A stretch of 30,736 nucleotides of DNA from a virus (taxonomy: Duplodnaviria > Heunggongvirae > Uroviricota > Caudoviricetes). This document shows, piece by piece, positions 1,176 to 30,734 of the stretch. The notes beneath the pieces are model-generated. The model was not told the origin of the DNA. It did not search any database and saw only the letters and a list, made by a program, of their open reading frames with translations. Location of the stretch: IMG/VR virus record IMGVR_UViG_3300049783_001441. One strand, written 5' to 3'. Position 1 is the first letter of the stretch, and every line of letters starts with the position of its first letter. Made by a program: the position numbers and the translations under genes.

Positions 1176-1212
1176 TGCGGACCTATGCCAGAGTTACTAC
1201 ACCGGAGTTACC

Positions 1213-2772: not shown

Positions 2773-2792
2773 CAATTCCGCGCAAACAGGGC

Positions 2793-2821
2793 TTGACAGC
2801 GCGGGTCTCGACTGATACCTT
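2793..2821 (+). promoter_or_regulatory. sigma70-type promoter with extended -10
   Basis: TTGACA (2793-2798), 17-bp spacer, TACCTT (2816-2821) preceded by TG at 2813-2814; lies in the gap after the helicase stop. Confidence 0.75.
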
Positions 2822-2980
2822 TTGAGTGCTCACGGGTACGTTGAGCTAGTAGGACAACACAAACAAAAACAAGCGGTAGCGCACCGAGACGCGAGTGACT
2901 ATAACGACCTTGAGCCCTGGCTTGAGGTATCGTTACTAGACTTGTCCTCCGGTTACGACTACCTCGCCGGGGTCTCACCT

Positions 2981-9343: not shown

Positions 9344-10452
9344 TGGGCAAGGAAAAAGCAGCGAAAAAGACCGATGTGACGAGCACCCTAGACGGGTTCC
9401 CGGTTTTCAACGTCAAGGGAATACCCTCGTCAAGCTCGCTGCGAGTCCGCACGCTGGTAGCCACACCAGTCGAGTGGTACCCGAGCAGCGTGGCCAAGTT
9501 CAAAGCCGAGCAGCGCGCCTATGTTAACAGCGGTGCACCGGGCACCGAGTTCGGCTACGATTCCGCTATTACTCCCGCCGCGGTAGCCATTCGAGAGCGC
9601 TCTAAGGACCGTAGAACCCAGTTTCGCGGCACCTCAAACGCCGGCTGGATCCAGAGTATGCAGGTGTTCGGCGGGAGCACGGCGATACAACAGTTGTCCG
9701 CCGCGCTGAACACGGCGCGAGTGGCTGGCATGGCACTTACCTACAAGGGGATGGACTTCAATTTTGAGCCGTGGTTTAAGCCGGACGCCACCTCGAAAGC
9801 CAAGGATCCAAACAGCCTTTTCACGAGCTACGCTATCAAGGTTTCCCGTATAGAGCGGGGGTTGTCCCTACTGGAAATGCACTCGCCGTTCTGCGAGTTG
9901 CCCGCTGCCGTGGGCGAACCCCAACGGCGCATATCGGCGAATATTACGCCAGTATGCGCAGACTGGTTCACCGTAACCACGGATGCCGCGCTAGTTGCAG
10001 GTTACAACCGGCTGGTCGACAACCCGGACCCGCTGTCAACCGAGCAGATCCGGTACATGCTCATGCTCGGTATGCTGGATAAGGTAACCCTAACGCCCAT
10101 TTACCCGCGTCTCGGGTTCGGAGAACTGCTGACCAGTTACCGGCGCGCGGTGGGTTCGCTGATCAATCCCGGCACCGTGAAGGGTTACGCCGCGGCGGCT
10201 GACCACCTGCTCGGAAACCCTACTAATACCTACCGCATGGAGCAACTGGCCCTACAAGCGGAGCGCGAGGTACCCTGGTTCACGCGCAACATAGTTACCG
10301 GTGAGGCGGCAGGGGGCGTGGAGTCGTACACTTACCACCCTGGTCTGCTGATGCTGAACAAGCCCGACGCCGACGCAAGCGCTATCAAGTTGTGGCGCGA
10401 GCACCAGAGCAACGAGCGTGCTAAGCAAGAGCAAGCAAACCGAGGGTACTAG
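9343..10452 (+). CDS. Hypothetical protein (369 aa), putative partner of the methyltransferase-helicase
   Basis: ATG at the TAATG overlap (MGKEKAAKK...), preferred over the track's start at 9268; directly upstream of the DUF6094-like gene. Confidence 0.8.
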   Translation: MGKEKAAKKTDVTSTLDGFPVFNVKGIPSSSSLRVRTLVATPVEWYPSSVAKFKAEQRAYVNSGAPGTEFGYDSAITPAAVAIRERSKDRRTQFRGTSNAGWIQSMQVFGGSTAIQQLSAALNTARVAGMALTYKGMDFNFEPWFKPDATSKAKDPNSLFTSYAIKVSRIERGLSLLEMHSPFCELPAAVGEPQRRISANITPVCADWFTVTTDAALVAGYNRLVDNPDPLSTEQIRYMLMLGMLDKVTLTPIYPRLGFGELLTSYRRAVGSLINPGTVKGYAAAADHLLGNPTNTYRMEQLALQAEREVPWFTRNIVTGEAAGGVESYTYHPGLLMLNKPDADASAIKLWREHQSNERAKQEQANRGY

Positions 10453-10499
10453 CCGCTGCGCTTGCCCCGAACCAAACACCATCTACCCTCGGACACACC

Positions 10500-13400: not shown

Positions 13401-16400
13401 CGCCTGTACTTCCTGGGCGGCAAAGACGGCCTGCTGAAAGGTCGCACGCACCGCATGGGCCAGCGCAAGCTCATGCCCGCTGCTGAACTCGCCGCCCTGG
13501 TCAAAAACCCTACTGACGCTAAGTACCGCTTGCTGGCGACCCGCTGGTCTGCGTGGTTCCCTGGTGAGTACCTGATCGACCCGTCTGCCAGCGACTACCC
13601 GAGGCACCTCGTAGACCGCGAGTCGAGCGTTGGCCAAGGTCTGCCCTGGTTAGCTCGCGCGCCCGCGTCCACCCGCCAACTGCAAGAGCCTTTGATTGAT
13701 GTCATTATGAAGAACTTCAGTAACAGCATCGACCTGGTACTGTTCGACGAGTCGCACGCCTACGGTAACCTGGGTTCCGCGCGCACCGCAGCCATGCTCC
13801 GGCTGGCTAACTTGCCCGCCTATAGCCTACTTATGACCGGTACGTTCTCCGGCGGTGACGCGAAGCAAATGTTCCCGCAGTTGTGGGCCGCGTCCGCCGG
13901 TATGCGCCAGAGCTACAAAGACCCTAGCCAGGGCGGTAAGTTTGTCGCGACGTTCGGCCACCAAACATGGTCCGAGAAGAACAAGGAACTTGAAAAGATC
14001 GCGGACGACCGGGGAGTTTTGACGAGCAACAACGTCGCGTCCAACGTCATGGTAACCGACAATCTGGACCGGGGCGGCCCCGGCAGCGCACCCGGCGTTA
14101 ACCCCTACGTTATCTTCAACTACCTCCTTCCGTGTTCCGTGGGCATCACGAAGCTCGACACGGAAACCGCCGGTCGGCAAGTGCCGCCTCTGACCGAGTC
14201 GCTAGAATATGTGAACCCCGACCCCGTGGTCGGCCCCCGGTTTAGCGCGCTGGTTAAGAGCGTGATGAACGAGATCATACGGGTAAAGCTGGAGAAAGGG
14301 CTTGCCCGGCGCTTCGGTTGGGCTCTGCAAGCCTCGTTGAGTTACCTCGATGCTGGCTTCCGCAGCCGCCCGAATGACCGCTACCAGACTAAGAACCGGG
14401 CCACGCCGCCAGGGGCGATCGTCGCTACCCCGCAATACTTCGATGCCGACTGGTCCGCCAAGCACTACACGCTGCGCTGGACCGACACCACGTCATTGGC
14501 CAGGGTGCCCGGCGCGATTGCGCCGCTATGGCCCGAAGGTCACATTTCTAATAAAGAGAAGCGGTTGATCGAGATTATCAGGGAGGAGTTGTACGTTGGC
14601 CGCAAGGTTATCGTGTGCCACCACCAGATCGTGCTGCGCAAGCGGCTAGTTGAGATTCTGAAAGGGGCTGGTATCCGCGCGGTTGGCATGACCACCAAGG
14701 CCCCGGACCAACGCAAGCAGTGGATTGACGACGAACTAAGCAAAAAAGAGCCGATGCAAGTCTTGGTGACTAACCCGGCGCTGATCTCCACCGGGCTCAA
14801 CAACCTAGTGACCTTCAGTACGATGATCTGGTTTGAAAACCCCAACGCCGACGCGAAGATTTACCGCCAGACGGTCGGGCGTATTCACCGGCCTAAGCAG
14901 ACTCAACCCACCAAGTCAATCCGCCTCGCTTACCCTGCGCAGCAAGCCCGCGAGCAGTGGCTCGCCGCGAAGATCAAAGGCTCGCGTAGCATCGACGCGC
15001 TCGACCTCGACACCGGGCTAAAGCTCATGGGCGTCGGCGTGGATACCATGGCCGTGTCCTTCGGGGATAACGAAACCGGCGGTGGTGACGACATCAGCGG
15101 CGCGCTCGGTGCGAGCCTCTACCGGATGCTCATTGGCACCGACGACCCGGACTCCGCGATAGACGCGGCTAAGCGCCGAGTGCGAGACGCCGAGCTGGCG
15201 CTGGCCGGCGGGGTTACTGCCGGTGTGGTGACCGACGACCTCGAACTCGTGACCCCGGATGCACTCAAAGCCGTAGCCCGTCAATTTCCAATAGACTTCC
15301 GCATTATGCCGTACCGGGCGCTACCTTACGGTACACTCTACCGGCGCGCGGTTACTCGCAAGCGTCCCACCGCGGCTGCGAAGCCGCCCCAACGGACCTC
15401 GCCCGCCTACACCGAATCTCAATCTGGAGCCCTTGTGCAACACCTCATCACACCGCAAGGGGGCACTGCAAACGGAGGCCCCGACATCAGCGAGCCGTCT
15501 AACAGTAACCTCCTCAAGATTGCTGCCGCGTTCTCGGGTAGCCCGCTCATCACCGCCGTTCAAGCGGCAACCCCGGCATCCCAGCAAGGTCGGTTCAGCG
15601 GTCGCCGGGCAACTGTGCAACGTCCATCCAGACGCCCACAGGCGAGCCCCCGCGCCGATCGGCTTCCAGGGTTTACCCGCGCGTACAAGACCACAACCAT
15701 GAAGCCTCTGCGGCTGAAGATGCGCCTCAAGAAGCTGCACATTGCTTCGCTGGCGAGCCTCGCGATGTTCGCACTAGACCAGAATGAACCGGGTGGCCGT
15801 TTGGCCGCCGGGTTGTCCAGGGCGACCGGGTCGGAAGACTGGCCCCGCCGCGCAGCCCCGCAGGATGTCGGGCTCGGAGCTGGCTGGCTCCAGAACGACA
15901 AGTATATCCAAGTGTTCTCGCAACCAGACCCGAAGGGCAAGCTCGCAGAGGGCGTGGCTTTCTACCTCCTCGCACCGGAAGTCTGGGGTCTCGCCAAGGC
16001 GGTGAAAGCTGCCGACGACCGCGACAAGTCCGGCGTGGGTATGCTCAACCTCTTGACGCGTATGCTGCGGGCAACCTTTGGTGCCGACACGGGTAACGCC
16101 GACCATATTAACCCGGCCTCCGGCGCGATTCTCGCCAGCCCTGACCCGCTGGGCGTGGAGTTCGTCGGCCCCGCAACCCGCACCCTCGACATTGCTGGAT
16201 TCGTGCCGACGCCCCGCAACGTCGCCCCGGTAGCGCCGCCCACCCCGGTCGCTAAGCCCGCCGCGAAGCCCGCGAAGATCCCTGCGAAGATCCCTGCAAA
16301 GATCCGCCCAAACAAGACCGTGAAGCCAGTTCGCCAGCCCGCGCCGGAACCGGCTACCGCCGGAAAGCCGGTCGTCCATACCACCGCCGCTGGCCTTACC

Positions 16401-16838
16401 TACGCGGTCCTCGTGCCGGGTGCTAACCTGCCGTCCGCCCTTCAGAAGTCCCTCGGGGCGACCATCGCCAGCCGCCGCGCTGCGCTCGTAGTCGAGCACA
16501 ACGCGGACAACCCCGGCGTCGTGATCACCGGAGCGGACCTACCCTTGTACGCCACCGAACCCCCGATCAAAAATACGGGCATGTTCCGGCTGCGCAAAGC
16601 CGCCGACGCCGACCACACGTTCCGCGTGTTCTCGGTAGGCCCGCACCCACTGGGCGGTAAGGTCGTATGGGCAATGAACAAGCGCTTCGTGTGGGCACAA
16701 TTCCGCGTAGCCGCCGGTGACACGGCCCCCGCAGTGAAGACCTTGGTTGACCTCTCTGGGGCATGGGCTCGCAGCGTAAAAGCCGCGGTCGGCCCGAACG
16801 CCCGCAAGGATACCGCGCTGCTAGTTACCCCTAGCTAG
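10500..16838 (+). CDS. 2112-aa fusion: DUF6094-like N6-adenine DNA methyltransferase + SNF2-type helicase with Zn-ribbon insert + unknown C-terminal extension
   Basis: N-terminus MARNAATLDMNFF resembles DUF6094 starts; motif I DPFAGEG (10644-10664); motif IV NPPY (10965-10976); HLTTALAAGVLNG post-MTase segment; Walker A GEVGSGKT (12120-12143); CPRCG (12456-12470); DESH (13746-13757); LMTGT; QTVGRIHR motif VI (from about 14868). Confidence 0.85.
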   Translation: MARNAATLDMNFFAIEPKDLARILSHFRLEAPQLYGYGVSGPTRVAFVDPFAGEGAALVQMQQWATTPAAWGYSFGNNQTRFIGAYGVELHGKRASKSAETVRNALGTVARDWDTGGTSSGPKGFELVGAVNQGDAESLLVNMSTASEASTLLFLNPPYGADKGVRSTPQLISAILSNGKGRTSELRQPGEGQWSPTGRVMAVVGSNDAEATVSALRQHYHRGYITPEIYVSRLPNKYKQVIIVMGARSTYAGGDLSASWMKPPATGGWLDAVPFLQETSTPTLMLMQASLLGTPSGADQVEQLDAMAFSKNITRSRLDASLVLGDWSVWGPVDTPNVPGVITPADILAPVYFTGTTARPAHLTTALAAGVLNGVEIEPDNPYLPTLLIKGYTTLELSVTGSEDVVVGGADGTEVTRLSGIEYTKLHLSALETETGRVTSVAMVNKPEQATSGFRFDKLNVKDLLVHYGPSLLTGLKSRMLSMEDAHLDSDGSFRLTDYELPELARPLYPAQANIVRSLVKMQEFYAKYRGQKAPGAVLMGEVGSGKTSMALGFAATIKAQRVLVVTPGHLASTWAEEITAVLGDDKATVHYLRSKVEASDEADPLADDADRKALSRVVKWGTASDPQRMQIGLITEATLSVGSGMTTVTGPCPRCGFVYPALGRLTKRGTEEAVHLRSRCDVIRLTAGNPYANRVATSAPLLRQFFNVQVPQVTLQGIKPPKGISAEQRAAWKAITVPVLHNVVGGAPMPPAVSEELELLRGDAGLTMPHPANETFQVAASVALQLLSGLPKDELKTQVLNPSNPVGWVKWAYASDAGWRATISLLKARPEVVSGSILVGLLQSAHNLIGPQSRADLQAFIVGHDTALTKNKLNVRYTSPYLGNSVAVSMVEWAAMLVAYDAGYAGMRDVLGSDWPLDSDRVDWVRSMGSVLGSQFESRARWSSGRCGEPRYKLAAREDDATKADHRLYFLGGKDGLLKGRTHRMGQRKLMPAAELAALVKNPTDAKYRLLATRWSAWFPGEYLIDPSASDYPRHLVDRESSVGQGLPWLARAPASTRQLQEPLIDVIMKNFSNSIDLVLFDESHAYGNLGSARTAAMLRLANLPAYSLLMTGTFSGGDAKQMFPQLWAASAGMRQSYKDPSQGGKFVATFGHQTWSEKNKELEKIADDRGVLTSNNVASNVMVTDNLDRGGPGSAPGVNPYVIFNYLLPCSVGITKLDTETAGRQVPPLTESLEYVNPDPVVGPRFSALVKSVMNEIIRVKLEKGLARRFGWALQASLSYLDAGFRSRPNDRYQTKNRATPPGAIVATPQYFDADWSAKHYTLRWTDTTSLARVPGAIAPLWPEGHISNKEKRLIEIIREELYVGRKVIVCHHQIVLRKRLVEILKGAGIRAVGMTTKAPDQRKQWIDDELSKKEPMQVLVTNPALISTGLNNLVTFSTMIWFENPNADAKIYRQTVGRIHRPKQTQPTKSIRLAYPAQQAREQWLAAKIKGSRSIDALDLDTGLKLMGVGVDTMAVSFGDNETGGGDDISGALGASLYRMLIGTDDPDSAIDAAKRRVRDAELALAGGVTAGVVTDDLELVTPDALKAVARQFPIDFRIMPYRALPYGTLYRRAVTRKRPTAAAKPPQRTSPAYTESQSGALVQHLITPQGGTANGGPDISEPSNSNLLKIAAAFSGSPLITAVQAATPASQQGRFSGRRATVQRPSRRPQASPRADRLPGFTRAYKTTTMKPLRLKMRLKKLHIASLASLAMFALDQNEPGGRLAAGLSRATGSEDWPRRAAPQDVGLGAGWLQNDKYIQVFSQPDPKGKLAEGVAFYLLAPEVWGLAKAVKAADDRDKSGVGMLNLLTRMLRATFGADTGNADHINPASGAILASPDPLGVEFVGPATRTLDIAGFVPTPRNVAPVAPPTPVAKPAAKPAKIPAKIPAKIRPNKTVKPVRQPAPEPATAGKPVVHTTAAGLTYAVLVPGANLPSALQKSLGATIASRRAALVVEHNADNPGVVITGADLPLYATEPPIKNTGMFRLRKAADADHTFRVFSVGPHPLGGKVVWAMNKRFVWAQFRVAAGDTAPAVKTLVDLSGAWARSVKAAVGPNARKDTALLVTPS

Positions 16839-16877
16839 TGCGGGTTGAGTAGGCGGCGGCCCCTAGCCGACTACGCC

Positions 16878-16911
16878 AAAAGCCCCGCCAGGGATGTGGC
16901 GGGGCTTTTTT
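16878..16911. terminator. Bidirectional intrinsic terminator
   Basis: AAAAGCCCCGCCA-gggatg-TGGCGGGGCTTTTTT between convergent genes. Confidence 0.92.
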
Positions 16912-16937
16912 GTGTTCATGGTTATCTGCGTGGCCGG

Positions 16938-17177
16938 TTACTCGGTGGTCTCGCTGAACTGGCAGAGGACACACCCGCAAGGGTTTTGCGGCGTGCTGTC
17001 CGCGCAACCCTCGGGGGCATCCACTAACCCGACACCCTTGTCGCCCTCCTCACGGGCTCGCGCGAGGTTCGCGCGTGTCCACGGGGTTGACCGGTGTCCG
17101 TAGCTGTACGGACCCTCCTCGTAGCCTCTAAACCCTTCCCGTCGCCGGTTGCGTCGTCTCGACCACTTGTCAGCCAT
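16938..17177 (-). CDS. Small Arg-rich protein with Cys-rich C-terminus (79 aa), hypothetical
   Basis: Start overlaps the HTH gene stop by 8 bp and the ORF ends about 27 bp before the bidirectional terminator; no clear SD. Confidence 0.45.
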   Translation of the reverse strand: MADKWSRRRNRRREGFRGYEEGPYSYGHRSTPWTRANLARAREEGDKGVGLVDAPEGCADSTPQNPCGCVLCQFSETTE

Positions 17178-17550
17178 GGAGGCTAGGCGTGGGTGCAGCG
17201 GCTACTGGGATCTTGGAGATTACGCACGTCACGACTACCTGCTCTGTAGCGCGCACGCGGGCGTCTATGTCCAGCGCGTAGCCTAGCTTCCGAACGGACT
17301 TCGCAAGCCCGTGCAAGGTAGACAAACGCGTCTGCCGACCCCGCTGGCACATCTGCGTAACCCCCGTCGTCGTGATGCCATGCGCATACGCAATGTGTCG
17401 GCGGGCCAGCCCGGCAGCGACCAGCGTTTCCACGACTAACCTAACGATGTTGGTGGGTGCTCCAGTGACGGTCTGGGGTAGCGGCAAGAGCGCGGGTTTA
17501 GAGGTCTCGGAGTCGGCGATAGTGGAGGTTTCTGGCTTGTTTTCGGTCAT
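17170..17550 (-). CDS. HTH transcriptional regulator, XRE/Cro-like
   Basis: LVAAGLARRHIAYAHGITTTGVTQMCQRGRQTRLSTLHGLAKSV fits the XRE HTH pattern; AGGA SD 6 nt before ATG 17550. Confidence 0.65.
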   Translation of the reverse strand: MTENKPETSTIADSETSKPALLPLPQTVTGAPTNIVRLVVETLVAAGLARRHIAYAHGITTTGVTQMCQRGRQTRLSTLHGLAKSVRKLGYALDIDARVRATEQVVVTCVISKIPVAAAPTPSLHG

Positions 17551-17666
17551 GTTACGTCCTGCCGCCCAACAGGCGTAGTTTGAAGTGTAGTTTCGGAAAT
17601 GTAGCATTTCCGTGAGGTCTCGAAAAGCGAGGTTCTAAGGGGGTTATTATCTCGAAACTGGTCGTC

Positions 17667-17682
17667 AAACCCCGCAAGGGGC
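17667..17682 (-). terminator. Possible weak terminator or hairpin after the 611-aa gene
   Basis: Minus strand GCCCC-TTGC-GGGG-TTT; short stem and short U tract. Confidence 0.3.
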
Positions 17683-17689
17683 GAACCCG

Positions 17690-19525
17690 CTACTCCGCCG
17701 GAATTGGCGTAGCAGCGGGGGTTTCGGCGGGTGCCAAGAGCCCGATAGCGGTCTCCCGGTCAATCTCGCTAAGCGACAAGGTGTCCAGCGTGTGGCCGGC
17801 TAGGGTAAGTAACGTCCGCAAGCCTTCGCCGGAAGTCGAAAGCTGTACCTGCATGGCGACCCGCGCGGTGTCCACCTGCCCGGCACTGTTGATAATCTTC
17901 TGGACCAGCTCCGGGTTGGCGGCGGCTAGCGCGGCTTGTGCCGGGTTGGGCGCGGCGGCTACGGGTGGCGCTGGCTGGGCGGTGTCGCCGGGCACGTTGG
18001 AGCGGTCGGTGAGCTGCGGCGGGGCGGAAGGGCCGGAGGCGTGCGCTATGCCCGCTTGTACCGCGGTGCCAATTACTCCGGGTAACACCTGCCCTAGACC
18101 ATTCACAACCGCGCTGGACAGTTGCGTAGTCAGGGACATCGGTGCTCCGAACAGCACTTGGTGAGCCATGGCCGCATCGGGCTTCTGGCCCGCGTCCAGT
18201 TGGGCCATGAGTAGGCGTTCGCCCAACGGTACCGAGCGCTGGCGATCCTCGCGCTCTGCCGCCATAGTGTCGAGTTCACGCTGAAAGGACAGCGCCATGC
18301 TCATGCGCTGGCTTTGGGCTTCGAGCGCAATGCGCTCAACCTCGGTGGTCATGCGCATGTACCCGTCGATCTGTTTACGGGCCATATCGGTAACCTGTAG
18401 CCCTAGCTGGGCGAGCCGTTCCATGCCTTCGCTCTGGAGTTCGGTGGCCCGCGTGGTGTTCTCCTGAATGGCCGCGCTTACTCCGAACTGGGTTTCCAGC
18501 GGAGCCCTAATCGCGTCGGCGTAAGCGGAGTGAACCCGCCGCGCTTGCTCGGACTGCGGGTCGTATGGTCGGCGCGGTTCGCCAGGGGGAAACTGCGCTC
18601 GCTCGAAAGGTGGGCTGGATGGAGCGCCCCAACTATGCCCGTTGGCAACCCCCGGAACAGGTAACCGCTCACCTTCGGGGTTACCCCACTGGTCTGCTCG
18701 ATGCACCGTCGAGGGGCCACCGCCGAAGTCAACCCCTAGCTCACCGTCGTCTGACCAAACCTCGGGGTCTGCCGCAGCGGTTGTCAGTTCGTCCAGCCCG
18801 GCCCATGCGTCGTCCTCGCCTACGGCTTCGCCTTCGTCTTCGTCTTCGTCATACCCGTGGCCGTCGCCGTCCTCGTACCCGCCCAGCTCTATGCCACGTT
18901 CCGGGGAGTAACCTCCGCCGCCTCCGCCGCCTCTGCCGCTAGGCGCTGTCCAGGGTTCGTTTGACCGCGCATACTCGGCAATGGCCCGCCGGATCGGGGC
19001 GCTTAGCTTCGGGTCAAGTATCCGCTCCATGGCGACGACGTTAGACACCCCCGCCGTGGGGTGAATTGGCGCGAACTGGAAGCGGATTATGCGTTCCTGC
19101 CACGCCTGAATCATCACCGGGTGCGAGATGAGCGCGGAGAACGTCACGCGCAAGGGAATGTCGCCAAGCTGCGCCCACTCACCGTGCCGTTGCCCGCTGA
19201 CGAGGTAACCGGTCAGGTTGGCGCGCACGTCGGCCTCACTAGCCAGGAAAGGCCCCTCTTTGGACCCGTTGCGGTTGCCCAGTGAAGCCCCGGCAGAGCG
19301 TAGCTCTTGCGCCTTGGCTTGTAGGTACGCGTCTCCGTCCAGCTCCAGCCCGTCTGGGCCGGACGACCGGTCGCGTTGCCCGCGAGTAACACTTTCGCGG
19401 TTACCCTCTAACGCTTCGCGTTCCTGGCGGCGCTTCTTCTTCTTACCGCTCTTCTTACCGCCCAAGCTGGCGGTTAGTTCAGCTAGTATGCCGCTTTCGG
19501 TGGGAAGGTCGTCGTCATGGCTCAT
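17690..19525 (-). CDS. Hypothetical protein (611 aa): basic N-terminus, Gly/acidic disordered centre, coiled coil, Pro/Ala-rich C-terminus
   Basis: Long ORF with a GGAG SD 7 nt before ATG 19525; no family recognised. Confidence 0.8.
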   Translation of the reverse strand: MSHDDDLPTESGILAELTASLGGKKSGKKKKRRQEREALEGNRESVTRGQRDRSSGPDGLELDGDAYLQAKAQELRSAGASLGNRNGSKEGPFLASEADVRANLTGYLVSGQRHGEWAQLGDIPLRVTFSALISHPVMIQAWQERIIRFQFAPIHPTAGVSNVVAMERILDPKLSAPIRRAIAEYARSNEPWTAPSGRGGGGGGGYSPERGIELGGYEDGDGHGYDEDEDEGEAVGEDDAWAGLDELTTAAADPEVWSDDGELGVDFGGGPSTVHRADQWGNPEGERLPVPGVANGHSWGAPSSPPFERAQFPPGEPRRPYDPQSEQARRVHSAYADAIRAPLETQFGVSAAIQENTTRATELQSEGMERLAQLGLQVTDMARKQIDGYMRMTTEVERIALEAQSQRMSMALSFQRELDTMAAEREDRQRSVPLGERLLMAQLDAGQKPDAAMAHQVLFGAPMSLTTQLSSAVVNGLGQVLPGVIGTAVQAGIAHASGPSAPPQLTDRSNVPGDTAQPAPPVAAAPNPAQAALAAANPELVQKIINSAGQVDTARVAMQVQLSTSGEGLRTLLTLAGHTLDTLSLSEIDRETAIGLLAPAETPAATPIPAE

Positions 19526-22787: not shown

Positions 22788-22827
22788 AAAGAGAGCCGGG
22801 TTGCGAGGCTTTCACCCGCAACCCGGC
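22786..22827 (-). terminator. Intrinsic terminator of the giant fibre gene
   Basis: Minus strand GCCGGGTTGCG-GGT-GAAA-GCC-T-CGCAACCCGGC followed by TCTCTTTTT; 11-bp perfect outer stem and GNRA loop. Confidence 0.85.
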
Positions 22828-22841
22828 CCGTTGGCCACCCT

Positions 22842-22877: not shown

Positions 22878-25800
22878 TTACGCCTTGGTGCCGATAGCAA
22901 TCCAAGTGACGGTCTCACCGACGTTACTCACGCCATTCGCGCCCGTGTTCCACGAGTTCAGGGTAAACCCGGTGGTCGTGAGGCTGGACAGGTTCGCAAT
23001 ACGGTCACCGGTCGGCGCGTCCGGCATTGATGGCGTAATCACAGGCACGGAGGCAAAGGCCACGGGGTAGGTAACGCTCCCTCCCGTTGCCGTTGTGGTG
23101 CCCCACTGGATCCGCATGGTACCGATGTCGAAGTAGCCACTCGCGGTCTTGTCGTCTACCACAGCATCGGTGACGTTAATCACGCTTTGCTGCGGCTTGA
23201 TACCGTAAACGCTAACCGTTGAGCCGTTCCATGCGTTGGTGCCGCTGAAAGCGACGTTGGCGGTCGAGCCTGCGATGTCCATCTGGGACAGAGACAACGA
23301 GGACGAACCATTGTGATAAAGGAAGGTCGAGGTGCTGTCTGCCCAATCGGCGGTCTCAATCGTGGAAGACAGCCGGATGTTGGTGCCCGCGTTTTTGGGT
23401 GTGAGCTGGACCTCTACAGTCTCGTAAGTAGCGGCGAGCGTCCCCCACGCCTGGGAGATGGTGACCGAGCTAGCGTTAACCGCACCCGTCAACGTCCCCA
23501 GCAGTACGCGCCTGTCAACCACCGGAACAGAGGATGGCTCTACCACCTCGGAATCCGCCAGTTGGGTGACTTCGAGGGTAGGGCGGTCTGACAGTGCAGT
23601 ATTCGTGTTGTCAGTACTGGGCGTAAAGACCCCTAGAGTAACCGTGTCGCCGATTGACAAGTCGTGCGTCGAAACAACGGTCTGCACGTCAACGTCGCCA
23701 CTGGAAGACTGGGCGTTTACCGCCCTCGCAACCACGGTTCCGTTTACCTTGATGTAGACTTGGCTGTTATTCGAAGCCGTCACATTGCCGGCCCGGCCTA
23801 CCAGGGTGTAGGTGCCGGGCTGCGCGATGGTAACGATACCGCCCGCTGCAATAGCGCCGACGTTGTACTCGGGGGTCTCCAGCACTACGTCGGTGTCCGA
23901 ACCAGCAAGCGTAGCCTGCGCCGATACACGCGCGTACTTGGCGCGGTGCAGGGTCACAGCCGTCAACGAGCCAGGGATAACGACTTCCGTCGTGGGGAGC
24001 TGCGTGAGCGAGCTGCTCCATGTCTTGATGTCGAGCGCCCCGGCGGTGTCCGCGCCGAACCGGATGTCGATTACGTCGTTGACTGCGAGTGTGCCTTCCC
24101 AGACGACGGTAGTCGCCCCGTGCACACTCGTGGAGTTCTGTTGGGCGGGGCTCACCGCGAGGACGGTCGCACCGTTTTTGTAAGCACCTGCGAAGTAGCG
24201 CGGGCCGTTTGAGGTCTCGATCCAACCGATGACGGCGGTGAGACTGTACCGGCCAGCTTGCAGGCATGTGTAGCTCTCATTGCCCACGGTGATGTTAGTA
24301 GACTCGGAGAAGAGCGCGCCGCTCATAACCAAGCGGGCCGTGGTTGCGGGTACGCCGGTATGCCACGCGTCCACCTCGGGTACCGCGACTGACTGGATTG
24401 TGTTGCTCTGGATGTCCGTAGATGCCTGCGAGGCCGTGGAGTACGCCAGTGTCGTGGCTTCGGTGTAGGTCGGGTCCACAACCAGCGAAACTACGGATGA
24501 GCTGGGGTTCTGCCGGATTGACAGCACGCACTGGTCGGCCAGGGCTGTATTCGGGTCGGTAAGGGCGGTAACCTCTGCGCTATCACTGACGCCATCGGCA
24601 TCGGAGTCTGCGAGAGCCGGGTTAGTGCCGAGTGCGATTTCATCGAAGTCCGTGATGCCGTCGCCGTCCGTATCCGTGGTGCTAACGTAGGTGCCCCGGC
24701 AGTCCTCGCCGGACCCCACTGTCACGGTTGTAGCCAGCGTCATGTAGGTGTTAGCGAAGACGCGAGCGCAGAAGTTACCGGGGTTGGTAACGACCACGCC
24801 AGCGGCCAAAGTAACGTATTGGCGGGCCAGAATGACGCCGGGGATGTTCACGAGGGTCGCGATTGCCGCGTAGGTGCCTACACTCCAGATCACCTGCACG
24901 TTGTCGGTCGCGTTGACGACGCGGATTTCCGCGCCGGCTGCGGCACTAAAGTAACTGCCGATATTGAACACGAACTTCGCGTCACGACCTTGACAGTCCA
25001 GCGTGATAATCGCTGCGGCTGATACGCTAAGAAATGCCGCGGTTGTGTAGACGCCCGGCGTGATTACCGCCCCGGTAGCCAGGATACCCGCTGCGGTGGT
25101 CAGCGTGTTGGTAGCGGTCAAGGCCGCGAGCGTGTCGATTGCTGCGGTCACGGCTGCGGTCTGGTCTGCAATGACCGGCGCGGCAACCCCTGTTGTCTGG
25201 GTGCCCGCGGAGGCTCCAGCGCCTAGGGTGATGACTCCCGTTGCGTTTATCGCGCCGGTTACAACGCCAGCGGCGAGCAAGTCCACTGTGGACCCGCCGT
25301 GGACAGCCCCGGCAGTTGTGCTGCTAGCACCGAGAGAGATACTGCCGACGGCCTCCACGTTGCCACCGGTTACACAAGTCGAAGCAACGTCGACTGTGCT
25401 GCCGCCCTGGATGGTCCCTGTAACCTCGGTTTCAGCGCCGATGGACAGGGCACCAATGGACAGAATGTCGCCCCAAATGGGCTGGGGTATGGAGGTCGTC
25501 GCGCCGGTGATGGTGGTGGTCGTACCCGTAAACAGGGTCTTGGTGGACAGCACGCTTCCGAGCAGTGTCGCGAGGTCCAGAAAGCCAGTGGGGCCGATGG
25601 ACGTGACGTGCAGCCCCATCTGCACGGTGTCGCCGGCCACGAGTTCGTAGTCGGTGGAGACGTGCATGGTGTCGGCTTGCGCTTCCGCCCGGCCTAGTTG
25701 CTTACGATGGCGAATAGCCTTGACGCCGTTAACCTTGATGTAGGTCTCGGTGAAGTGCGGGTACGCGGGTCCAGTGCTCTGGTAAACCGAGTTGTTGCCG

Positions 25801-28800
25801 CCGCTGGCGTTCAGGGTGTAGTTGCCACTGTTGACGATGGTCACGATGCCGGCGCTGGAGACGTTACCAACATCGTAGTCTTCCACGTTCATAACGATGT
25901 CGTTATCGCCGACAACCGTGGTAACCACGCCGGTCTGGCGAGCCCGCGCACGGTGCAGAGAGGTAACCGGCACGGCGAGGGGGTTAACGACCGTCGAAAC
26001 TACTTTCTGTTCAATGGACAGCTCGAACGAGTACAGGTCTACCTGCTCACCTGTCGTGGTTCCGAGGCGGAACTCGATGGTTGAAACACCGGCTGTCAAG
26101 CCGAATAGCGGCACATTGATAATGTCGCCAGCCATGAACCCGGCGGTCAGGGTTGCCTGGGTGCTGGTGTACTCGGCACCGTTGACGCCCATGAACAGGG
26201 TGTAACGGGTGTCTGCGCCGCCCGTGTCGTTCAGACCGGGGCGGAAAGACACCGAGTAGTTACCGTCGTTAGGCACGGTGATTACGTTGGAGGCGACTGC
26301 AAAACTGTCGTTCTGGCGGCTCACTGCTAGGCTCAAGTCCACAACCGCCGCACCCGCAAAGGTAGCGTCGTTGGTGTTGATTGCTTGCGCCCCCGTGGCG
26401 TTGTAGGCCCGGACCAGGGAGTAATTGGCCAGTGCCGTGGGGGTTGCCATACCTGCCAGCACGACCGAGGTAGCGGGCTTGCTGTTGAGCGAGAACGAAA
26501 GCCCCGTGATTGCAAGGGTCTCACCGGCGGCATGGCCCGCGCGGAGGTCGATGACCGCGCCAGCCGTTAGCGGGCCGTCGTATGTGAGGGTCATATGGTA
26601 GGGGTAAGACGCGACCATTGCCGTGACGCCTTCGTCGAGAATAGCGGTCCCGTTACCGAGGTACCAATGCGCCTGGGTGCTTGTGCCGCCCCGGTCGACC
26701 ATGGCGATGCTGGCGGAGATAATGTAGTTACCAGTCGCCGGTACGGTGAAGCCAGTCGTACCCGCGATATTGTTGGTGTCGAGCTGCGCAGTGCCCAGCG
26801 TGAAGTCAACCACAGTGGCCGTCAAGTACGTGGTTGTACTTGCACCGCCGAGGGTTTGCAGCTCGGATCCCGTGTAGGGGATGGTGAAGCCGAGCTGGAC
26901 CAGCGAGGTAACCTCGGCCAAGCCGTGGACGTGGACCGACCACGCACCCGAGCCAAGGCTGATGACGGAGACTACTTCGCCGACCGAGGTCAGGGTGTAG
27001 GTTGCGTCTACAACACCGTTCAGCGTGTCGCCTACCTGGGGCGTGATGACCGCCCGGTAGAGTTCTACAGTCGAGCCGCCGATTACGGTCATACGAATCT
27101 GGTTCAGCCCCACGCTCGGCAGGGTGAACACGCCGGTTGCGGTGTACTCGGTGCTGTAGATGCTGTCTGCGAGAGCGGGTCCGGGGTCCGCGGTTACGGC
27201 CCCGCGCGAGATGAGGCCACTACCAGAGGCGTACTCCGATACCGCGCCGGCATCGATTCCCGATAGTGCCAGGCTACCCACAGCGGTCGCGTCGACAACG
27301 GCAGTGCCGTCTAGGTTGTAGACGGGCTCAATGATGAGGACGGGGGTTGCGCCCGATGCGCCGGTCCAAGTCAGCACCAAGCTCACTCGGAGCATACGAA
27401 CGTCGCCCCGGTCGGAAGCGGCCACGGTGGCGACTGCGGTGACGAGGCCGGCGTCCGTTCCGCCAGCGACTACCGCCGTGCCGGCTGTGCCGATCTCTAG
27501 CAGCTCAAAGGCGCTATTAGCGGCGTCCGAGTACCCGATACGGATAACGTGGTTAGCGTTTACAATGTCGTCAGGTAACTCGATGTTGATCTGGTACGTG
27601 TCGCCGCTCGTGAATGCGAGGGCACCGAGCGAGGCTTCAAAGGCCGTGGTGACGGCAGCGTCCGTGTCGGTGAGGGTAAGCAGTGACTTGCCGCCCCACG
27701 GTGACGCTGTACGGGAGGCCGCTCCCGTGCCAGTGCTCGGAACCGCGATGGCCGCCGGGAGCAGCGTATCAACGAGGTTGCGCTCGGTGTTGGCGGTAAA
27801 CTGCGTCCAAGTGCCTGCGTCGGCGGCGAAGGTCGCGCCGGAGATGCCGGTAGCCGTGCGGATGTAGGCTTCACCGTCTACGCTGATCTGCGTGCCCGCC
27901 GGGTAAGGGGCGGTCGCGGCAAACGCGTTGATGGTGGTCTGGCGGACGTAGGCCCACTTTGCAACCTCGGTCGCGTCGAAAGTGGCTTCCGAGTCGCCGG
28001 CTGCGACGTTCTGCACAATCACGCCGGCAACCGAGGCGTTCGCGGTGGCTCCCATGGCAAGGCGTTCGCCCGCGTAGTAGTAGGTCGCAGCGGCCCAGTC
28101 TGGAGTCGTTACCTGGGAAACAAAGGACCACGTCGCGGCCTCTGCACTGTCGAACGTCGCGCCTGACGAACCGGCTGCAATGCGGCTCAAGCGGCGGATA
28201 CCGGACAACACCTGCGCACCGGCATGGTAGTAAGTCGCTGCCGCCCATGCTGGGGTGTGCGCTTGCGCTGCGAGTGTCGAGGTCCAGTCGGCCTGCGCCC
28301 ACGCCACGACACCCTGGAAGGTCGCTGTAGCGGTGTAGAGGTTGCCGTCCTGCACAATCTGGGTGCCTGCGACGTAGAGCCCAGACGCGGAGTAGGCGTC
28401 TACACTGGCCTGGGACACGTAGGCCCAGTTACCAGCTTCCGCAAGGTCGAACGCTGCGCCGGCAGTGCCATCCGCCACGCGGCGGAGGTACACGCCGTTA
28501 AAGCGTACCAGTTGGTCCGCCGAGTAAACCAGGGTAGCGGCCCACAAAGGAACCGAGGTCGAGGTCTTCGCAGTCCACAGCGATGCGTCGAACGCGCCCG
28601 CGGCAGCGCCGGTAGCGATCTTGGCGTAGATGACGCCGCCCGAGGTCACCAGTTCGCCGGTGACGTAAATCGAGGCGGTTACCCACGCGGGTACACTGGC
28701 CTGCGACACGAGCGTCCAGTCGGCGGCTTCAGTGGCATCGAAGGCTGCTCCAGCCGTTCCGTCCGCCGTGCGGCGGAGTACTGCGCCGGTCGGGGAGATT

Positions 28801-30734
28801 GCCAGTTCGCCGGCAACGTACACGGCCAGAGTGGCCCACGGGTTGACCACGGTCGAGCCCGTGACCAGCGTCCAGTCGGCGTCCACAAAGGTTGCAGTGG
28901 AGGTGAATGCAGCCGTGGCTGCGTAGAGCTTACCGGCCTGCGAGATCTGCACGTTGGCCGGGTAAACGGCGGTGCCTGCGAAGGCACTCACCGACACCTG
29001 CGACACGTAGGTCCACGCGCCGGCCTCTGCCGTGTCGAACGTAGCCCCCGAGTCACCGGAAGCAGTGCGGGTAAGTAGCACGCCGTTCTGCTCGATTAGC
29101 GTCTGCGCCGGGTAGTTCGTGGCGGCAACCCATGCCGAGATCGTGGCGTCGTTTACGACTGACCAGTCCGCGGCTTCCGTTGCGTCGTATGCGGCACCCG
29201 AGGTGCCTGTAGCGGTGCGCTTTACAATCTGGTTAGCGCCGGCCTGTACCAGTTCGCCAGCCATGTAAATGGTGGTTGCGGCCCATGCACTGACGGTGCC
29301 TTGAGCGAGTAAGTCCCACGAAGCCGCCTCGACTGCGGTGAAGGTTGCCGCGGAGGTGCCGGCAGAAGAGCGGCGGAGCGTGCGGCCTGACTCGATGGCT
29401 AGCCCTTTATCGGAGTAGGCCGTAGCGGCGATCCAATCGACGACAATCGGGTCTACGTTGACGAGCTTCACCCAACTGGCGGTCTCGATTGCGAGCGAAG
29501 CGCCGGTGAGGCGGGCGGAGGAGCTTTGCCACAGCGTGTCGTCCTCGGAGATCTTCTCGCCGTCCATTACGACGCTAGCAGCTACGAAGCCAGCGATGGA
29601 GCGTTGGGCTGTGAGCGTCCAGGCGGCGGCCTCGGTCGCGTCGAAGGTCGCGTTGGATGTACCGGCTGCGATGCGGGTCATCGTGCGGTTACCGTCCGCG
29701 ACGACGGCGTTGGCGGGGTAGCTTGTGCTCGACGCCCACTGCTCGATCGCGGTGTAGGTACGCGCGGTCCATGAGGCCGCTGTGAACGCGCCCGCCGATG
29801 TGAAGGTGGCGTTCGACTCGTAGAGCGCTCCGGCCTCACTGACCAGCTCGCCTGCGATGTAGATCGAGGTAGCGGCCCAGCCGGTTGCGCCCACCTGGGA
29901 TACTAGGCTCCAATCTGCGGCTTCGGTAACATCGAAGGCTGCGCCTGAAGTGCCGGCGGCAATGCGGCGGAGCGTGCGCGTGCCTGACAGGACCAGTTGG
30001 CCCAGCGGGTAAGTCGTGGTAGCTGCCCATGCGGGCAAACCGCCCGACGTGCGCGGGGTCCAGCTTGCGGCGTTGAATGCGCCGGCACTGGTGAGCACTC
30101 CGGGTGCTTCGTAAATAATGCCGCCTTCAGTGGCCAGCTCTCCCGCGAAGTAAATGGTAGTGGCGACCCATGCTGGCACGCCCTGTTGAGCTACCAGCAG
30201 CCACGTAGCGGCTTCCGCTGCGTCCAGGGTTGCATTCGAGGTGCCGTCTGCAATGCGCCGGATCGTGCGGGTTCCCGCCAGGACCGTCTGGCCTGCGAGG
30301 TACGCCGTGCTAGCTGCCCATGCGTCCAGCGTGGTCGCCGATGTAATCGCGGCCCAGTTACCCTCGGTGAACGTGCCGGTTGATGTGAAAGTGGCGGCAG
30401 CAGCGTACAAAACGCCGGCTTCGGTCACAATCTCGCCAGCCATGTAGGTGGAAGTACCCGCCCATGCTGCGATCGTAGACTGGCTGATCAAGTTCCAGTT
30501 ACCGGCTTCGGCCAGAGTGAACGTAGCAGCGCTGGTACCCGTAATGGGGCGCGAGAGCAACCGGGTGCCCTCGGTTGCCGTTGCGTCTGCGGGGTACGAA
30601 GTGGAGCCGACGAACGCCGAGATACCGGCGGAAGGCTCCAGCACAACCGTCCAGCTCGCCACGCCGAATGCGCCAGCCGAGGTGAACGTAGCGCTTGCGG
30701 CGTAGATTACGCCGGTCTCAACTACCATTTCGCC
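22878..30734 (-). CDS. Giant tail-fibre/adhesin-like protein (>2600 aa, N-terminus outside the window): CBM5/12-like repeats, C1q-like domains, DUF3494 ice-binding-type domain, TSP3-like repeats, gp53-like C-terminus
   Basis: Frame stays open beyond ATG 30728 (GGC GAA ATG continues the repeat register). Contains tail-fibre-type modules (ITPQVGDTLNG...YTL...W; GSTVSVYGIK; C-terminal GYFDIGTMRIQWG...YPVAF...TGFTL...WIAIG). Confidence 0.9.
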   Translation of the reverse strand, partial: GEMVVETGVIYAASATFTSAGAFGVASWTVVLEPSAGISAFVGSTSYPADATATEGTRLLSRPITGTSAATFTLAEAGNWNLISQSTIAAWAGTSTYMAGEIVTEAGVLYAAAATFTSTGTFTEGNWAAITSATTLDAWAASTAYLAGQTVLAGTRTIRRIADGTSNATLDAAEAATWLLVAQQGVPAWVATTIYFAGELATEGGIIYEAPGVLTSAGAFNAASWTPRTSGGLPAWAATTTYPLGQLVLSGTRTLRRIAAGTSGAAFDVTEAADWSLVSQVGATGWAATSIYIAGELVSEAGALYESNATFTSAGAFTAASWTARTYTAIEQWASSTSYPANAVVADGNRTMTRIAAGTSNATFDATEAAAWTLTAQRSIAGFVAASVVMDGEKISEDDTLWQSSSARLTGASLAIETASWVKLVNVDPIVVDWIAATAYSDKGLAIESGRTLRRSSAGTSAATFTAVEAASWDLLAQGTVSAWAATTIYMAGELVQAGANQIVKRTATGTSGAAYDATEAADWSVVNDATISAWVAATNYPAQTLIEQNGVLLTRTASGDSGATFDTAEAGAWTYVSQVSVSAFAGTAVYPANVQISQAGKLYAATAAFTSTATFVDADWTLVTGSTVVNPWATLAVYVAGELAISPTGAVLRRTADGTAGAAFDATEAADWTLVSQASVPAWVTASIYVTGELVTSGGVIYAKIATGAAAGAFDASLWTAKTSTSVPLWAATLVYSADQLVRFNGVYLRRVADGTAGAAFDLAEAGNWAYVSQASVDAYSASGLYVAGTQIVQDGNLYTATATFQGVVAWAQADWTSTLAAQAHTPAWAAATYYHAGAQVLSGIRRLSRIAAGSSGATFDSAEAATWSFVSQVTTPDWAAATYYYAGERLAMGATANASVAGVIVQNVAAGDSEATFDATEVAKWAYVRQTTINAFAATAPYPAGTQISVDGEAYIRTATGISGATFAADAGTWTQFTANTERNLVDTLLPAAIAVPSTGTGAASRTASPWGGKSLLTLTDTDAAVTTAFEASLGALAFTSGDTYQINIELPDDIVNANHVIRIGYSDAANSAFELLEIGTAGTAVVAGGTDAGLVTAVATVAASDRGDVRMLRVSLVLTWTGASGATPVLIIEPVYNLDGTAVVDATAVGSLALSGIDAGAVSEYASGSGLISRGAVTADPGPALADSIYSTEYTATGVFTLPSVGLNQIRMTVIGGSTVELYRAVITPQVGDTLNGVVDATYTLTSVGEVVSVISLGSGAWSVHVHGLAEVTSLVQLGFTIPYTGSELQTLGGASTTTYLTATVVDFTLGTAQLDTNNIAGTTGFTVPATGNYIISASIAMVDRGGTSTQAHWYLGNGTAILDEGVTAMVASYPYHMTLTYDGPLTAGAVIDLRAGHAAGETLAITGLSFSLNSKPATSVVLAGMATPTALANYSLVRAYNATGAQAINTNDATFAGAAVVDLSLAVSRQNDSFAVASNVITVPNDGNYSVSFRPGLNDTGGADTRYTLFMGVNGAEYTSTQATLTAGFMAGDIINVPLFGLTAGVSTIEFRLGTTTGEQVDLYSFELSIEQKVVSTVVNPLAVPVTSLHRARARQTGVVTTVVGDNDIVMNVEDYDVGNVSSAGIVTIVNSGNYTLNASGGNNSVYQSTGPAYPHFTETYIKVNGVKAIRHRKQLGRAEAQADTMHVSTDYELVAGDTVQMGLHVTSIGPTGFLDLATLLGSVLSTKTLFTGTTTTITGATTSIPQPIWGDILSIGALSIGAETEVTGTIQGGSTVDVASTCVTGGNVEAVGSISLGASSTTAGAVHGGSTVDLLAAGVVTGAINATGVITLGAGASAGTQTTGVAAPVIADQTAAVTAAIDTLAALTATNTLTTAAGILATGAVITPGVYTTAAFLSVSAAAIITLDCQGRDAKFVFNIGSYFSAAAGAEIRVVNATDNVQVIWSVGTYAAIATLVNIPGVILARQYVTLAAGVVVTNPGNFCARVFANTYMTLATTVTVGSGEDCRGTYVSTTDTDGDGITDFDEIALGTNPALADSDADGVSDSAEVTALTDPNTALADQCVLSIRQNPSSSVVSLVVDPTYTEATTLAYSTASQASTDIQSNTIQSVAVPEVDAWHTGVPATTARLVMSGALFSESTNITVGNESYTCLQAGRYSLTAVIGWIETSNGPRYFAGAYKNGATVLAVSPAQQNSTSVHGATTVVWEGTLAVNDVIDIRFGADTAGALDIKTWSSSLTQLPTTEVVIPGSLTAVTLHRAKYARVSAQATLAGSDTDVVLETPEYNVGAIAAGGIVTIAQPGTYTLVGRAGNVTASNNSQVYIKVNGTVVARAVNAQSSSGDVDVQTVVSTHDLSIGDTVTLGVFTPSTDNTNTALSDRPTLEVTQLADSEVVEPSSVPVVDRRVLLGTLTGAVNASSVTISQAWGTLAATYETVEVQLTPKNAGTNIRLSSTIETADWADSTSTFLYHNGSSSLSLSQMDIAGSTANVAFSGTNAWNGSTVSVYGIKPQQSVINVTDAVVDDKTASGYFDIGTMRIQWGTTTATGGSVTYPVAFASVPVITPSMPDAPTGDRIANLSSLTTTGFTLNSWNTGANGVSNVGETVTWIAIGTKA
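22881..23150 (-). other. gp53-like/H-type-lectin-like C-terminal tail-fibre domain
   Basis: SGYFDIGTMRIQWG...VTYPVAFASVP...TTTGFTL...VTWIAIG. Confidence 0.75.
24552..24680 (-). other. Two bacterial TSP3-like Ca2+-binding repeats
   Basis: DTDGDGITDFDEIALGTNP and DSDADGVSDSAEVTALTDP. Confidence 0.85.
24720..25545 (-). other. DUF3494 (ice-binding-like) beta-solenoid domain within the giant protein
   Basis: ITPGVY (25047-25064)...ITLDCQGRDAKFVFNIGSYF...VIWSVG...GVILA..VTL...ARVFA..MTL follows the DUF3494 signature (LTPGVY...LTLDAQG...FIFQIG...VFWQVG...GNILA...GRLLA...VTL); preceded by the long helix DQTAAVTAAIDTLAAL. Confidence 0.85.
27800..30734 (-). repeat. About 20 tandem CBM5/12 (ChtBD3)-like protein repeats of two subtypes
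   Basis: Consensus W-A-A-x-T-x-Y-x-A-G-(E/Q)-x-V...G...(Y/L)...F...W, counted by eye in the translation. Confidence 0.75.

Follow-up and report, generated by a model that had tools for sequence, protein, structure and literature searches.

Known ice-binding proteins are secreted by cells or displayed on their surface, and in viruses such proteins have been mentioned only as the products of genes presumed to help the host. The described proteins closest to the domain reported here form the extended, non-canonical DUF3494 class (ncDUF3494), which is found in bacteria only, almost all of them from icy habitats. The class includes a 9-coil protein of Cand. Aquiluna sp. and 11-coil proteins of Colwellia and Glaciecola, and a recombinant member is ice-active down to about 2 ug/ml (Raymond 2024, PMC11645318). 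The viral DNA recorded as IMGVR_UViG_3300049783_001441, a stretch of 30,736 nucleotides referred to in its entirety as the window, comes from an uncultured virus-like element of ~99 kb and contains most of a giant gene in which a domain of this kind is embedded. What is new here is the setting, in that a known ice-binding fold, of the extended type typical of ice habitats, is carried on the loop of a C1q-like knob in the apparent giant fibre of an unclassified ice virus.

The fibre domain resembles the ncDUF3494 proteins in its predicted triangular beta-helix with one flanking alpha-helix, in a match to the Pfam family PF11999 that covers the C-terminal half, in a putative central hydrophilic row, and in its icy habitat. 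The published proteins are free-standing bacterial products with a signal peptide and often a PEP-CTERM end, whereas the fibre copy has neither and is embedded in a C1q-like loop; relative to the published class, as compared by its description, the fibre also has Asp at two ladder positions. The canonical IBP-1 proteins of solved structure (LeIBP 3UYU, FfIBP 4NU2, EfcIBP 6EIO, SfIBP_1 6BG8, IBPv 5UYT and ColAFP 3WP9) are alike in both sequence and fold, and Foldseek comparisons of the predicted domain to them give E values of 7.6e-7 to 3.4e-4, a probability of 1.00, and template modelling (TM) scores by target of up to 0.72. Identity to them is only 15–22%, the solved proteins are all secreted cellular products, and the fibre domain has ~100 extra residues, forming six more coils than the single pre-helix coil of the canonical layout.

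MpIBP, the 1.5-MDa type I secreted RTX ice-binding adhesin of Marinomonas primoryensis, is a functional counterpart whose ice-binding domain is not DUF3494. It, too, has a long modular stalk in which an ice-binding beta-solenoid lies beside sugar-binding modules and calcium repeats, and it serves positioning on ice, not antifreeze activity, as the fibre would; the two proteins are not homologous, and by Pfam the fibre has neither an RTX repeat nor a type I secretion signal. The Ig-like capsid decoration proteins of the T4 Hoc type, the basis of the 'adherence to mucus' model, offer an analogy only, in which a virion module binds the matrix of the habitat, not the host, and raises encounter rates; their fold, position on the particle and substrate are all different. 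Finally, three PF11999 genes have been described on viral contigs from the Central Arctic and read as auxiliary metabolic genes for host cryoprotection by Rahlff et al. (2024, PMC11515562), who also cite an antifreeze gene in Southern Ocean viruses and name Synechococcus phage S-SKS1 as carrying homologues. Those genes share with the present locus a virus-encoded Ice_binding-like domain and a polar habitat, but they were reported as stand-alone genes without structural context, whereas here the domain is part of a fibre.

The fibre gene lies on the minus strand at 22878-30734, where a reading frame stays open for 2618 codons up to a stop at 22878-22880 and, on its 5' side, runs past the end of the window. 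An initial annotation of the window, made from the sequence alone, had described an open reading frame of >2600 amino acids (aa) here, and the frame does have that length; the complete gene, read on longer Joint Genome Institute (JGI) and Logan contigs of the same element, codes for 2862 aa. Protein positions refer either to the part encoded in the window (P0001, 2618 aa) or to the full protein (P0003, 2862 aa), and window coordinates of the features are collected in Table 1.

The evidence for an ice-binding-type domain within this protein is consistent across methods. First, when residues 1700-2060 of P0001 are scanned as a segment, PF11999 matches residues 1854-2003 (24726-25175) with a score of 64.1 bits (cut-off 28.7) and an E value of 1.8e-17, and the match takes in positions 62-205 of the 208 in the profile. 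The initial annotation had noticed a DUF3494 signature at 24720-25545 and proposed this HMMER comparison; the match is well above the cut-off, and the whole domain extends over 24699-25583. An hmmscan of the entire 2618-aa protein missed both PF11999 and the tip family PF21882, which score 64 and 24 bits, respectively, on excised segments; long Thr/Ala/Gly-rich fibres can mask domains in whole-protein scans. Second, phmmer searches of PDB sequences return SfIBP_1 (6bg8, 7e-7), EfcIBP (6eio, 2e-5), an FfIBP/LeIBP chimera, and LeIBP. Third, an AlphaFold2 (AF2) model built with 15 relatives as the alignment has a predicted local distance difference test score (pLDDT) of 88.4 and a predicted TM score (pTM) of 0.87; its only helix, at segment residues 145-156, is flanked on both sides by series of short strands. 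The best 31 Foldseek matches of this model in the PDB are all IBP-1 ice-binding proteins (LeIBP, AnpIBP, TisAFP, FfIBP, EfcIBP, IBPv, ColAFP, SfIBP_1 and FcIBP), and the matches that follow have an E value of 0.02. Seven 18-residue coils precede the helix (segment residues 17-142) and about five follow it, and a Cys pair is conserved. By profile and by model, then, this is a genuine DUF3494 domain with the predicted IBP-1 fold of a right-handed triangular beta-helix flanked by one alpha-helix, and its layout is the extended, non-canonical one, with seven pre-helix coils and PF11999 seeing the C-terminal half only.

The domain interrupts another. The third of five C1q-like repeats (D1 to D5) breaks off at ...AGDTVQMGLHVTSIGPTG, and after the DUF3494 domain and two TSP3 repeats the sequence continues with NTALADQCVLSIRQNPSSSVV, a stretch that lines up with the ends of the fifth (NTALSDRPTLEVTQLADSEVV) and fourth repeats. 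Because the D3 strand resumes after the TSP3 repeats, the DUF3494 and TSP3 segments are an insertion, a cassette that by alignment is placed in the last loop of D3, before its last strand (24507-25583 region). Since D3 is interrupted just before that strand, the ends of the insert must be close together; in the IBP-1 fold the first coil and the last lie near each other, which suits loop insertion. The best bacterial relative (P0014) matches through the DUF3494 domain into its own TSP3 repeats, with 43% identity over query residues 240-583, and this comparison suggests that the cassette was captured as one unit.

Table 1. Features of the fibre locus, in window coordinates
Feature	Position	Strand	Basis or remark
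Fibre gene, 3' part, 2618 codons plus stop	22878..30734	-	First 244 codons beyond the window end
CBM5/12-like Trp/Tyr modules, double units of ~98 aa	27804..30734	-	Own repeat profile and Pfam CBM_5_12
All-beta region of ~280 aa (P0003 1222-1500)	26970..27803	-	No family match
C1q/TNF-like repeats D1, D2 and D3 (D3 minus its last strand)	25584..26969	-	Internal similarity, alignment
Extended DUF3494 / IBP-1 beta-helix (predicted fold)	24699..25583	-	P0001 1718-2012; Pfam, PDB sequences, AF2, Foldseek
Two bacterial TSP3 repeats, Asp-rich, calcium-binding type	24552..24674	-	PF18884, 35.3 bits
Displaced last beta-strand of D3, NTALADQCVLSIRQN, parallel to the D5 end NTALSDRPTLEVTQL	24507..24551	-	Alignment
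C1q/TNF-like repeats D4 and D5	23616..24506	-	AF2 model and Foldseek
C-terminal tip region, 245 aa, predicted trimeric	22881..23615	-	PF21882, homotrimer prediction
Gp53-like_C, last 74 residues	22890-23111	-	PF21882
Intrinsic terminator-like hairpin, 15 pairs (11 G-C), then a T run	22793..22829	-	49 nt 3' of the fibre stop

The surface that would contact ice can be followed through the coils. When the coils are set in their 18-residue register, five residues make up the third strand of each, the central one facing outward. At this position, 11-15 of the 15 bacterial relatives have Thr on the main N-terminal coils, and Ser or Thr predominates on the four C-terminal coils, a pattern that corresponds to the central Thr/Ser row described by Raymond (2024). 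In the fibre the row consists of T32, S50, D68, S86, D104 and T122, followed by S, A, T and T, with Ser or Thr at seven of the ten positions. A Tyr ladder (Y214, Y241, Y259 and Y283) located two residues before the row is conserved in all relatives, as is the Cys pair, and both are therefore features of the subfamily, not specific to the virus.

Relatives of the domain are bacterial. An exhaustive HMMER search of 1.84 billion representatives identifies relatives with 35–43% identity over all ~300 residues, the closest of which are secreted proteins with signal peptides, from metagenome-assembled genomes (MAGs) of Myxococcota and Planctomycetaceae among others. These proteins also carry TSP3, MopE, GEVED, LruC/DUF4842 or PEP-CTERM-like parts; P0004, P0005, P0009 and P0011 combine a signal peptide with a PEP-CTERM-like end, and identity to relatives of the PEP-CTERM type is 25–30%. 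A pattern scan of one genome per species, covering 185,579 species, recovers 12 relatives (L012-L023), including Halioglobus, Cryomorphaceae, Bradymonadia, Myxococcota, Cognaticolwellia and Ilumatobacter, and all 12 are MAGs of a single JGI series. They span at least five phyla. This distribution suggests wide horizontal spread of the extended DUF3494 module within ice communities. According to its record, one sample of the series is a central Arctic ice core, and consecutive accession numbers point to an icy habitat for the other samples as well. Four sequencing runs from 2024 contain the window DNA at full length, and all are labelled 'ice metagenome'; all four may stem from a single campaign, and the source sample may be among them. 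The habitat fits a role on ice, as the DNA is from ice metagenomes. Among the sequencing runs listed as containing window DNA there is no RNA run.

A phage counterpart was found in none of the collections searched. The initial annotation had allowed that many described phage fibres might already carry the domain, and had proposed a search of IMG/VR. A tblastn search of 50,697 GenBank phage records yields no match for the C-terminal 919 aa, for the DUF3494 segment (E up to 1), or for canonical DUF3494, and pattern scans of IMG/VR with the DUF3494 alignment yield no relative. In BFVD the fold is present in three proteins only, all of the giant virus Hyperionvirus, and no described phage fibre with the domain emerged from any of these three sources. 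The literature searched describes no DUF3494 domain on a phage particle. A word-index search for longer proteins with the domain also returned none, which is weak evidence, as is the lack of a PF11999 match in Synechococcus phage S-SKS1 in a search whose own controls likewise gave nothing.

Whether the domain is carried on a particle depends on the rest of the protein, which is probably a virion fibre, judging from its architecture, its shared N-terminus, the lack of a secretion signal, the predicted trimeric tip and its viral relatives, in a neighbourhood with no recognised structural genes. The full-length N-terminus starts MSRTIATALTVTSGDGVAPLELNGH. On direct reading, it holds one basic residue and has neither a hydrophobic core nor a cleavage-site pattern, and the fibre is therefore taken to lack a Sec or Tat signal peptide; the N-terminus was missing from the window, and the initial annotation had left this check to the recovery of adjacent sequence. 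Pfam scans identify no other secretion signal in the protein, and no Pfam family for RTX repeats or a type I secretion signal is found at E values up to 10 on four segments. We also considered a plasmid-encoded bacterial adhesin secreted by a type I or type IX system, and rejected it because signal, RTX repeat and sorting domain are all absent and the context is viral.

A 381-aa protein encoded ~7 kb upstream begins with a stretch that shares 36% identity (E 6e-9) with fibre residues 1 to ~85, and beyond these residues the two proteins have nothing in common. By analogy, a common N-terminus followed by a divergent remainder would be the usual pattern of alternative fibres that dock to one site on the particle. 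The genes for the 381-aa and 2862-aa proteins are each preceded by a gene for a ~333-aa protein, and these two are paralogues (48% identity, E 1e-99). The two-gene unit of an orphan ~333-aa protein followed by a fibre is present twice in the longer sequence L009, at 1101-3406 and 8835-18589. The 333-aa partner has no PHROG, Pfam or usable Atlas match, and its Atlas model is poor. The shared N-terminal domain (P0003 1-90; L009 2261-2530) contains the motif GDT(Y/F)...(F/W)RY.GAAW, which we take to resemble N-terminal motifs of phage minor tail or fibre proteins; an IMG/VR pattern scan with this domain found no relative.

The N-terminal domain is followed by a stalk. P0003 residues 83-1221 comprise 12 double units, or ~24 modules, by our own repeat profile; ~20 of them lie in the window, which agrees with the approximately 20 Trp/Tyr repeats counted initially. 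Pfam CBM_5_12 (PF02839) matches P0001 1-1000 in seven stretches at 51.9 bits and the whole protein at 32.8 bits (cut-off 26.2), so that on sequence the modules can be placed in the CBM5/12 family, with glycans as their probable ligand. Capture of host glycans by lectin-like modules, raised in the initial annotation, is conjectural. The all-beta region next to the stalk has no Pfam, PHROG or PDB sequence match; its Atlas features point weakly to viral structural proteins (0.87, under the 0.9 mark).

The five knobs are internal repeats of ~155 aa, similar to each other in the pairs D1-D2, D1-D4, D2-D5 and D3-D5 with E values down to 2e-17. The last 534 residues of the protein, folded by AF2 with a 15-sequence alignment, have a pLDDT of 70.7 overall and of 70–93 in most domain blocks, and in this model D4 and D5 match C1QL1, Caprin-2, Cbln (cerebellins), APRIL and the NC1 domain of collagen X, with TM scores by target of 0.72–0.81. 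Five C1q-like jelly-rolls had been proposed, and all five are retained, D4 and D5 as predicted C1q/TNF-like jelly-rolls by fold and D1 to D3 by internal similarity alone. A Pfam C1q match is missing from the fibre protein itself, the C1q-like fold being supplied by the model instead; among the 15 aligned sequences, C1q is matched by two, BclA_C by three and TNF by one. PDB sequence searches with the C1q-like and C-terminal parts return nothing.

At the C-terminus, Gp53-like_C (PF21882) scores 24.3-24.5 bits, where the cut-off is 24.9, with an E value of 4e-5 and coverage of positions 8-83 in a profile of 84. The gp53-like C-terminus named in the initial annotation thus falls just short on the fibre's own score, but is matched at E <= 0.01 by 13 of the 15 sequences in an alignment of the query with 14 relatives, with a best value of 7e-13. 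Homotrimer prediction with three copies of the last 310 residues gives an interface score (ipSAE) of 0.80, compared with 0.00 for the best control; among proteins of solved structure, 20 of the 30 that are pairs of one chain attain the mark applied to this score, as does one of the 23 that are single chains. Separate runs share at least 80% of their contacts, with a partner pLDDT of at least 72, and the contacts predicted with confidence fall within P0001 2406-2616, C-terminal to the fifth knob. Many solved structures are trimeric C1q/TNF heads or fibre tips, and the result may reflect likeness to these trimers. The prediction nonetheless supports a trimeric tip.

Relatives of the C-terminal modules are found on IMG/VR viral contigs and in PHROG families of unknown function. 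The PHROGs on two such contigs (L002 and L010) belong to lysin-like or function-unknown families only, and these contigs are therefore viral but not assignable to a morphotype. The cluster of the fibre protein includes a member on a contig of 98,770 bp. Other genes in the window code for a protein of the DUF3987 primase-helicase type, helicases, a Dda-like helicase, and a 2112-aa methyltransferase-helicase protein; upstream of the fibre are polymerase A in two genes, a tyrosine integrase, and a methyltransferase. The initial annotation had raised a secretion signal with a cellular neighbourhood as a contrary outcome, and had proposed a search for adjacent tail or baseplate genes. The neighbours are viral (replication and helicase genes, an integrase and the second fibre), and no tail or baseplate gene is among them: there are no tail PHROGs nearby, the surroundings consisting of replication genes, the orphan 333-aa protein, polymerase and integrase. 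'Phage tail fibre' is too specific a label.

Several other features of the locus can be described. The 2112-aa protein (10500-16838, plus strand) has an N-terminal methyltransferase-like motif region, ResIII and Helicase_C domains (phrog_62, 1.1e-34), and a long, Pro/Ala/Lys-rich C-terminal part. The family A DNA polymerase appears to be split into adjacent genes of 486 aa and 463 aa (L009 5673-8521, minus strand), which match the consecutive positions 633-831 and 850-1209 of phrog_17. The hairpin listed in Table 1, a strong one, sits between the convergent fibre gene and a 284-aa gene ending at 22787, and may act as a terminator on both strands. It is the one site found in a 600-nt region, compared with a mean of 0.7 in shuffled sequence, and a terminator of its own is counted toward the fibre character of the gene. 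No DNA-level tandem repeats were found.

The reading proposed here is that the gene codes for a giant modular adhesion fibre of an ice-living virus-like element, and that its DUF3494 domain adsorbs the particle to ice; its probability is put at roughly 40%. The N-terminal domain of ~85 aa, common to the small second fibre, would fix the protein to the particle, and the ~24 CBM5/12-like modules would form a long, aromatic-rich stalk of the glycan-binding type. The five C1q/TNF-like knobs and the trimeric Gp53-like tip, as predicted, would make up the distal, host-recognising part. From the third knob, one extended DUF3494 helix per chain would jut sideways on a calcium-repeat hinge, in a cassette that was probably taken from a secreted surface protein of ice bacteria, since it is ~34–43% identical to such proteins. 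The particle may then adsorb, through this putative ice-binding domain, to ice crystal surfaces in brine channels or veins, and adsorption would keep virions near ice-attached hosts, as Ig-like capsid domains keep phages in mucus. That particles carry functional ice-binding domains, three per trimeric fibre, and adsorb to ice crystals is a tentative proposal, with the odds leaning against it. The observations of the initial annotation hold in all parts that could be checked, and its interpretation, an ice-attaching virion fibre, is partly supported.

A number of points weigh against ice adsorption by a particle. At two row positions where Thr is found in 13 of 15 and 15 of 15 relatives, respectively, the fibre has Asp, and a third position is Ala. 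Ice-binding faces rarely carry charged residues, and the two Asp residues are the chief sequence-level argument against simple ice binding. That the row belongs to the flat, ice-binding b face is itself suggested by analogy with Raymond's figures. The location of the protein on the virion is inferred, and no structural PHROG family is recognised in the fibre, its segments or the 333-aa partner. Among the proteins examined, DUF3494 is absent from all C-terminal relatives, and the domain must therefore be dispensable for the basic function of the fibre. Finally, a single, nearly clonal population is known for the element: the copies of the fibre gene in the window, L004, L005 and L006 differ by 1 nt, and a selection test on four such copies is impossible.

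The alternative that survives best accepts a virion fibre but gives DUF3494 another ligand, such as host capsule or exopolymer, another cell-surface glycan, or mineral or organic particles, making it one more adhesin module in addition to those of the CBM5/12 and C1q-like types. It is a serious candidate, somewhat below even odds, and given the partly acidic ladder a non-ice ligand is about as likely as ice. The Asp, Asp and Ala residues that replace part of the relatives' Thr ladder leave room for such a ligand. Some DUF3494 proteins come from ice-free habitats and are suspected to have other substrates there, which counts against ice as well; the bacterial relatives pair the domain with the adhesin-type parts TSP3, MopE, GEVED and LruC/DUF4842; and beta-helices are common as receptor-binding modules of phage fibres. 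Yet the source DNA is from ice, the genomic relatives come from one MAG series of which one sample is an Arctic ice core, and seven of the ten ladder residues are still Ser or Thr. The published extended class, moreover, is nearly confined to icy habitats and has an ice-active member.

It is improbable that the protein is not a particle component at all, but a huge product that is set free on lysis or presented by the infected cell and would protect or anchor the host in ice. Arctic viral PF11999 genes have been treated as host cryoprotection genes (Rahlff et al. 2024, PMC11515562), and the fibre protein matches no structural PHROG. Such a product would be expected neither to lack a signal peptide and any other Pfam secretion signal nor to share its N-terminus with another fibre-like protein encoded in a copy of its two-gene unit; its Gp53-like, predicted trimeric C-terminus also speaks for a fibre, and a cryoprotectant would not need 2862 residues of stalk and knobs. 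Least likely, with very low odds, is a ligand-free insert serving as a rigid beta-helical spacer or stabiliser brought in with the TSP3 repeats, for although fibre relatives function without the domain and its conserved Tyr ladder and Cys pair look structural, a 300-aa domain in a surface loop points off the fibre axis and cannot lengthen the fibre, and its solvent-exposed row is still hydrophilic and small.

The locus indicates that the IBP-1 fold tolerates insertion as a cassette, and offers protein engineering an IBP-1 helix displayed from a C1q-like loop on a calcium-repeat hinge, probably in three copies. The 320-residue domain is a directly testable case. If the proposed ice adsorption is true, the fibre would be the first structural, virion-borne ice-binding protein, and would represent a new viral strategy, that of staying in the ice beside ice-attached hosts or shielding the particle from growing crystals. 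Contact between viruses and hosts in sea and glacier ice would then be recast, with particles residing on ice walls rather than diffusing or draining with the brine.

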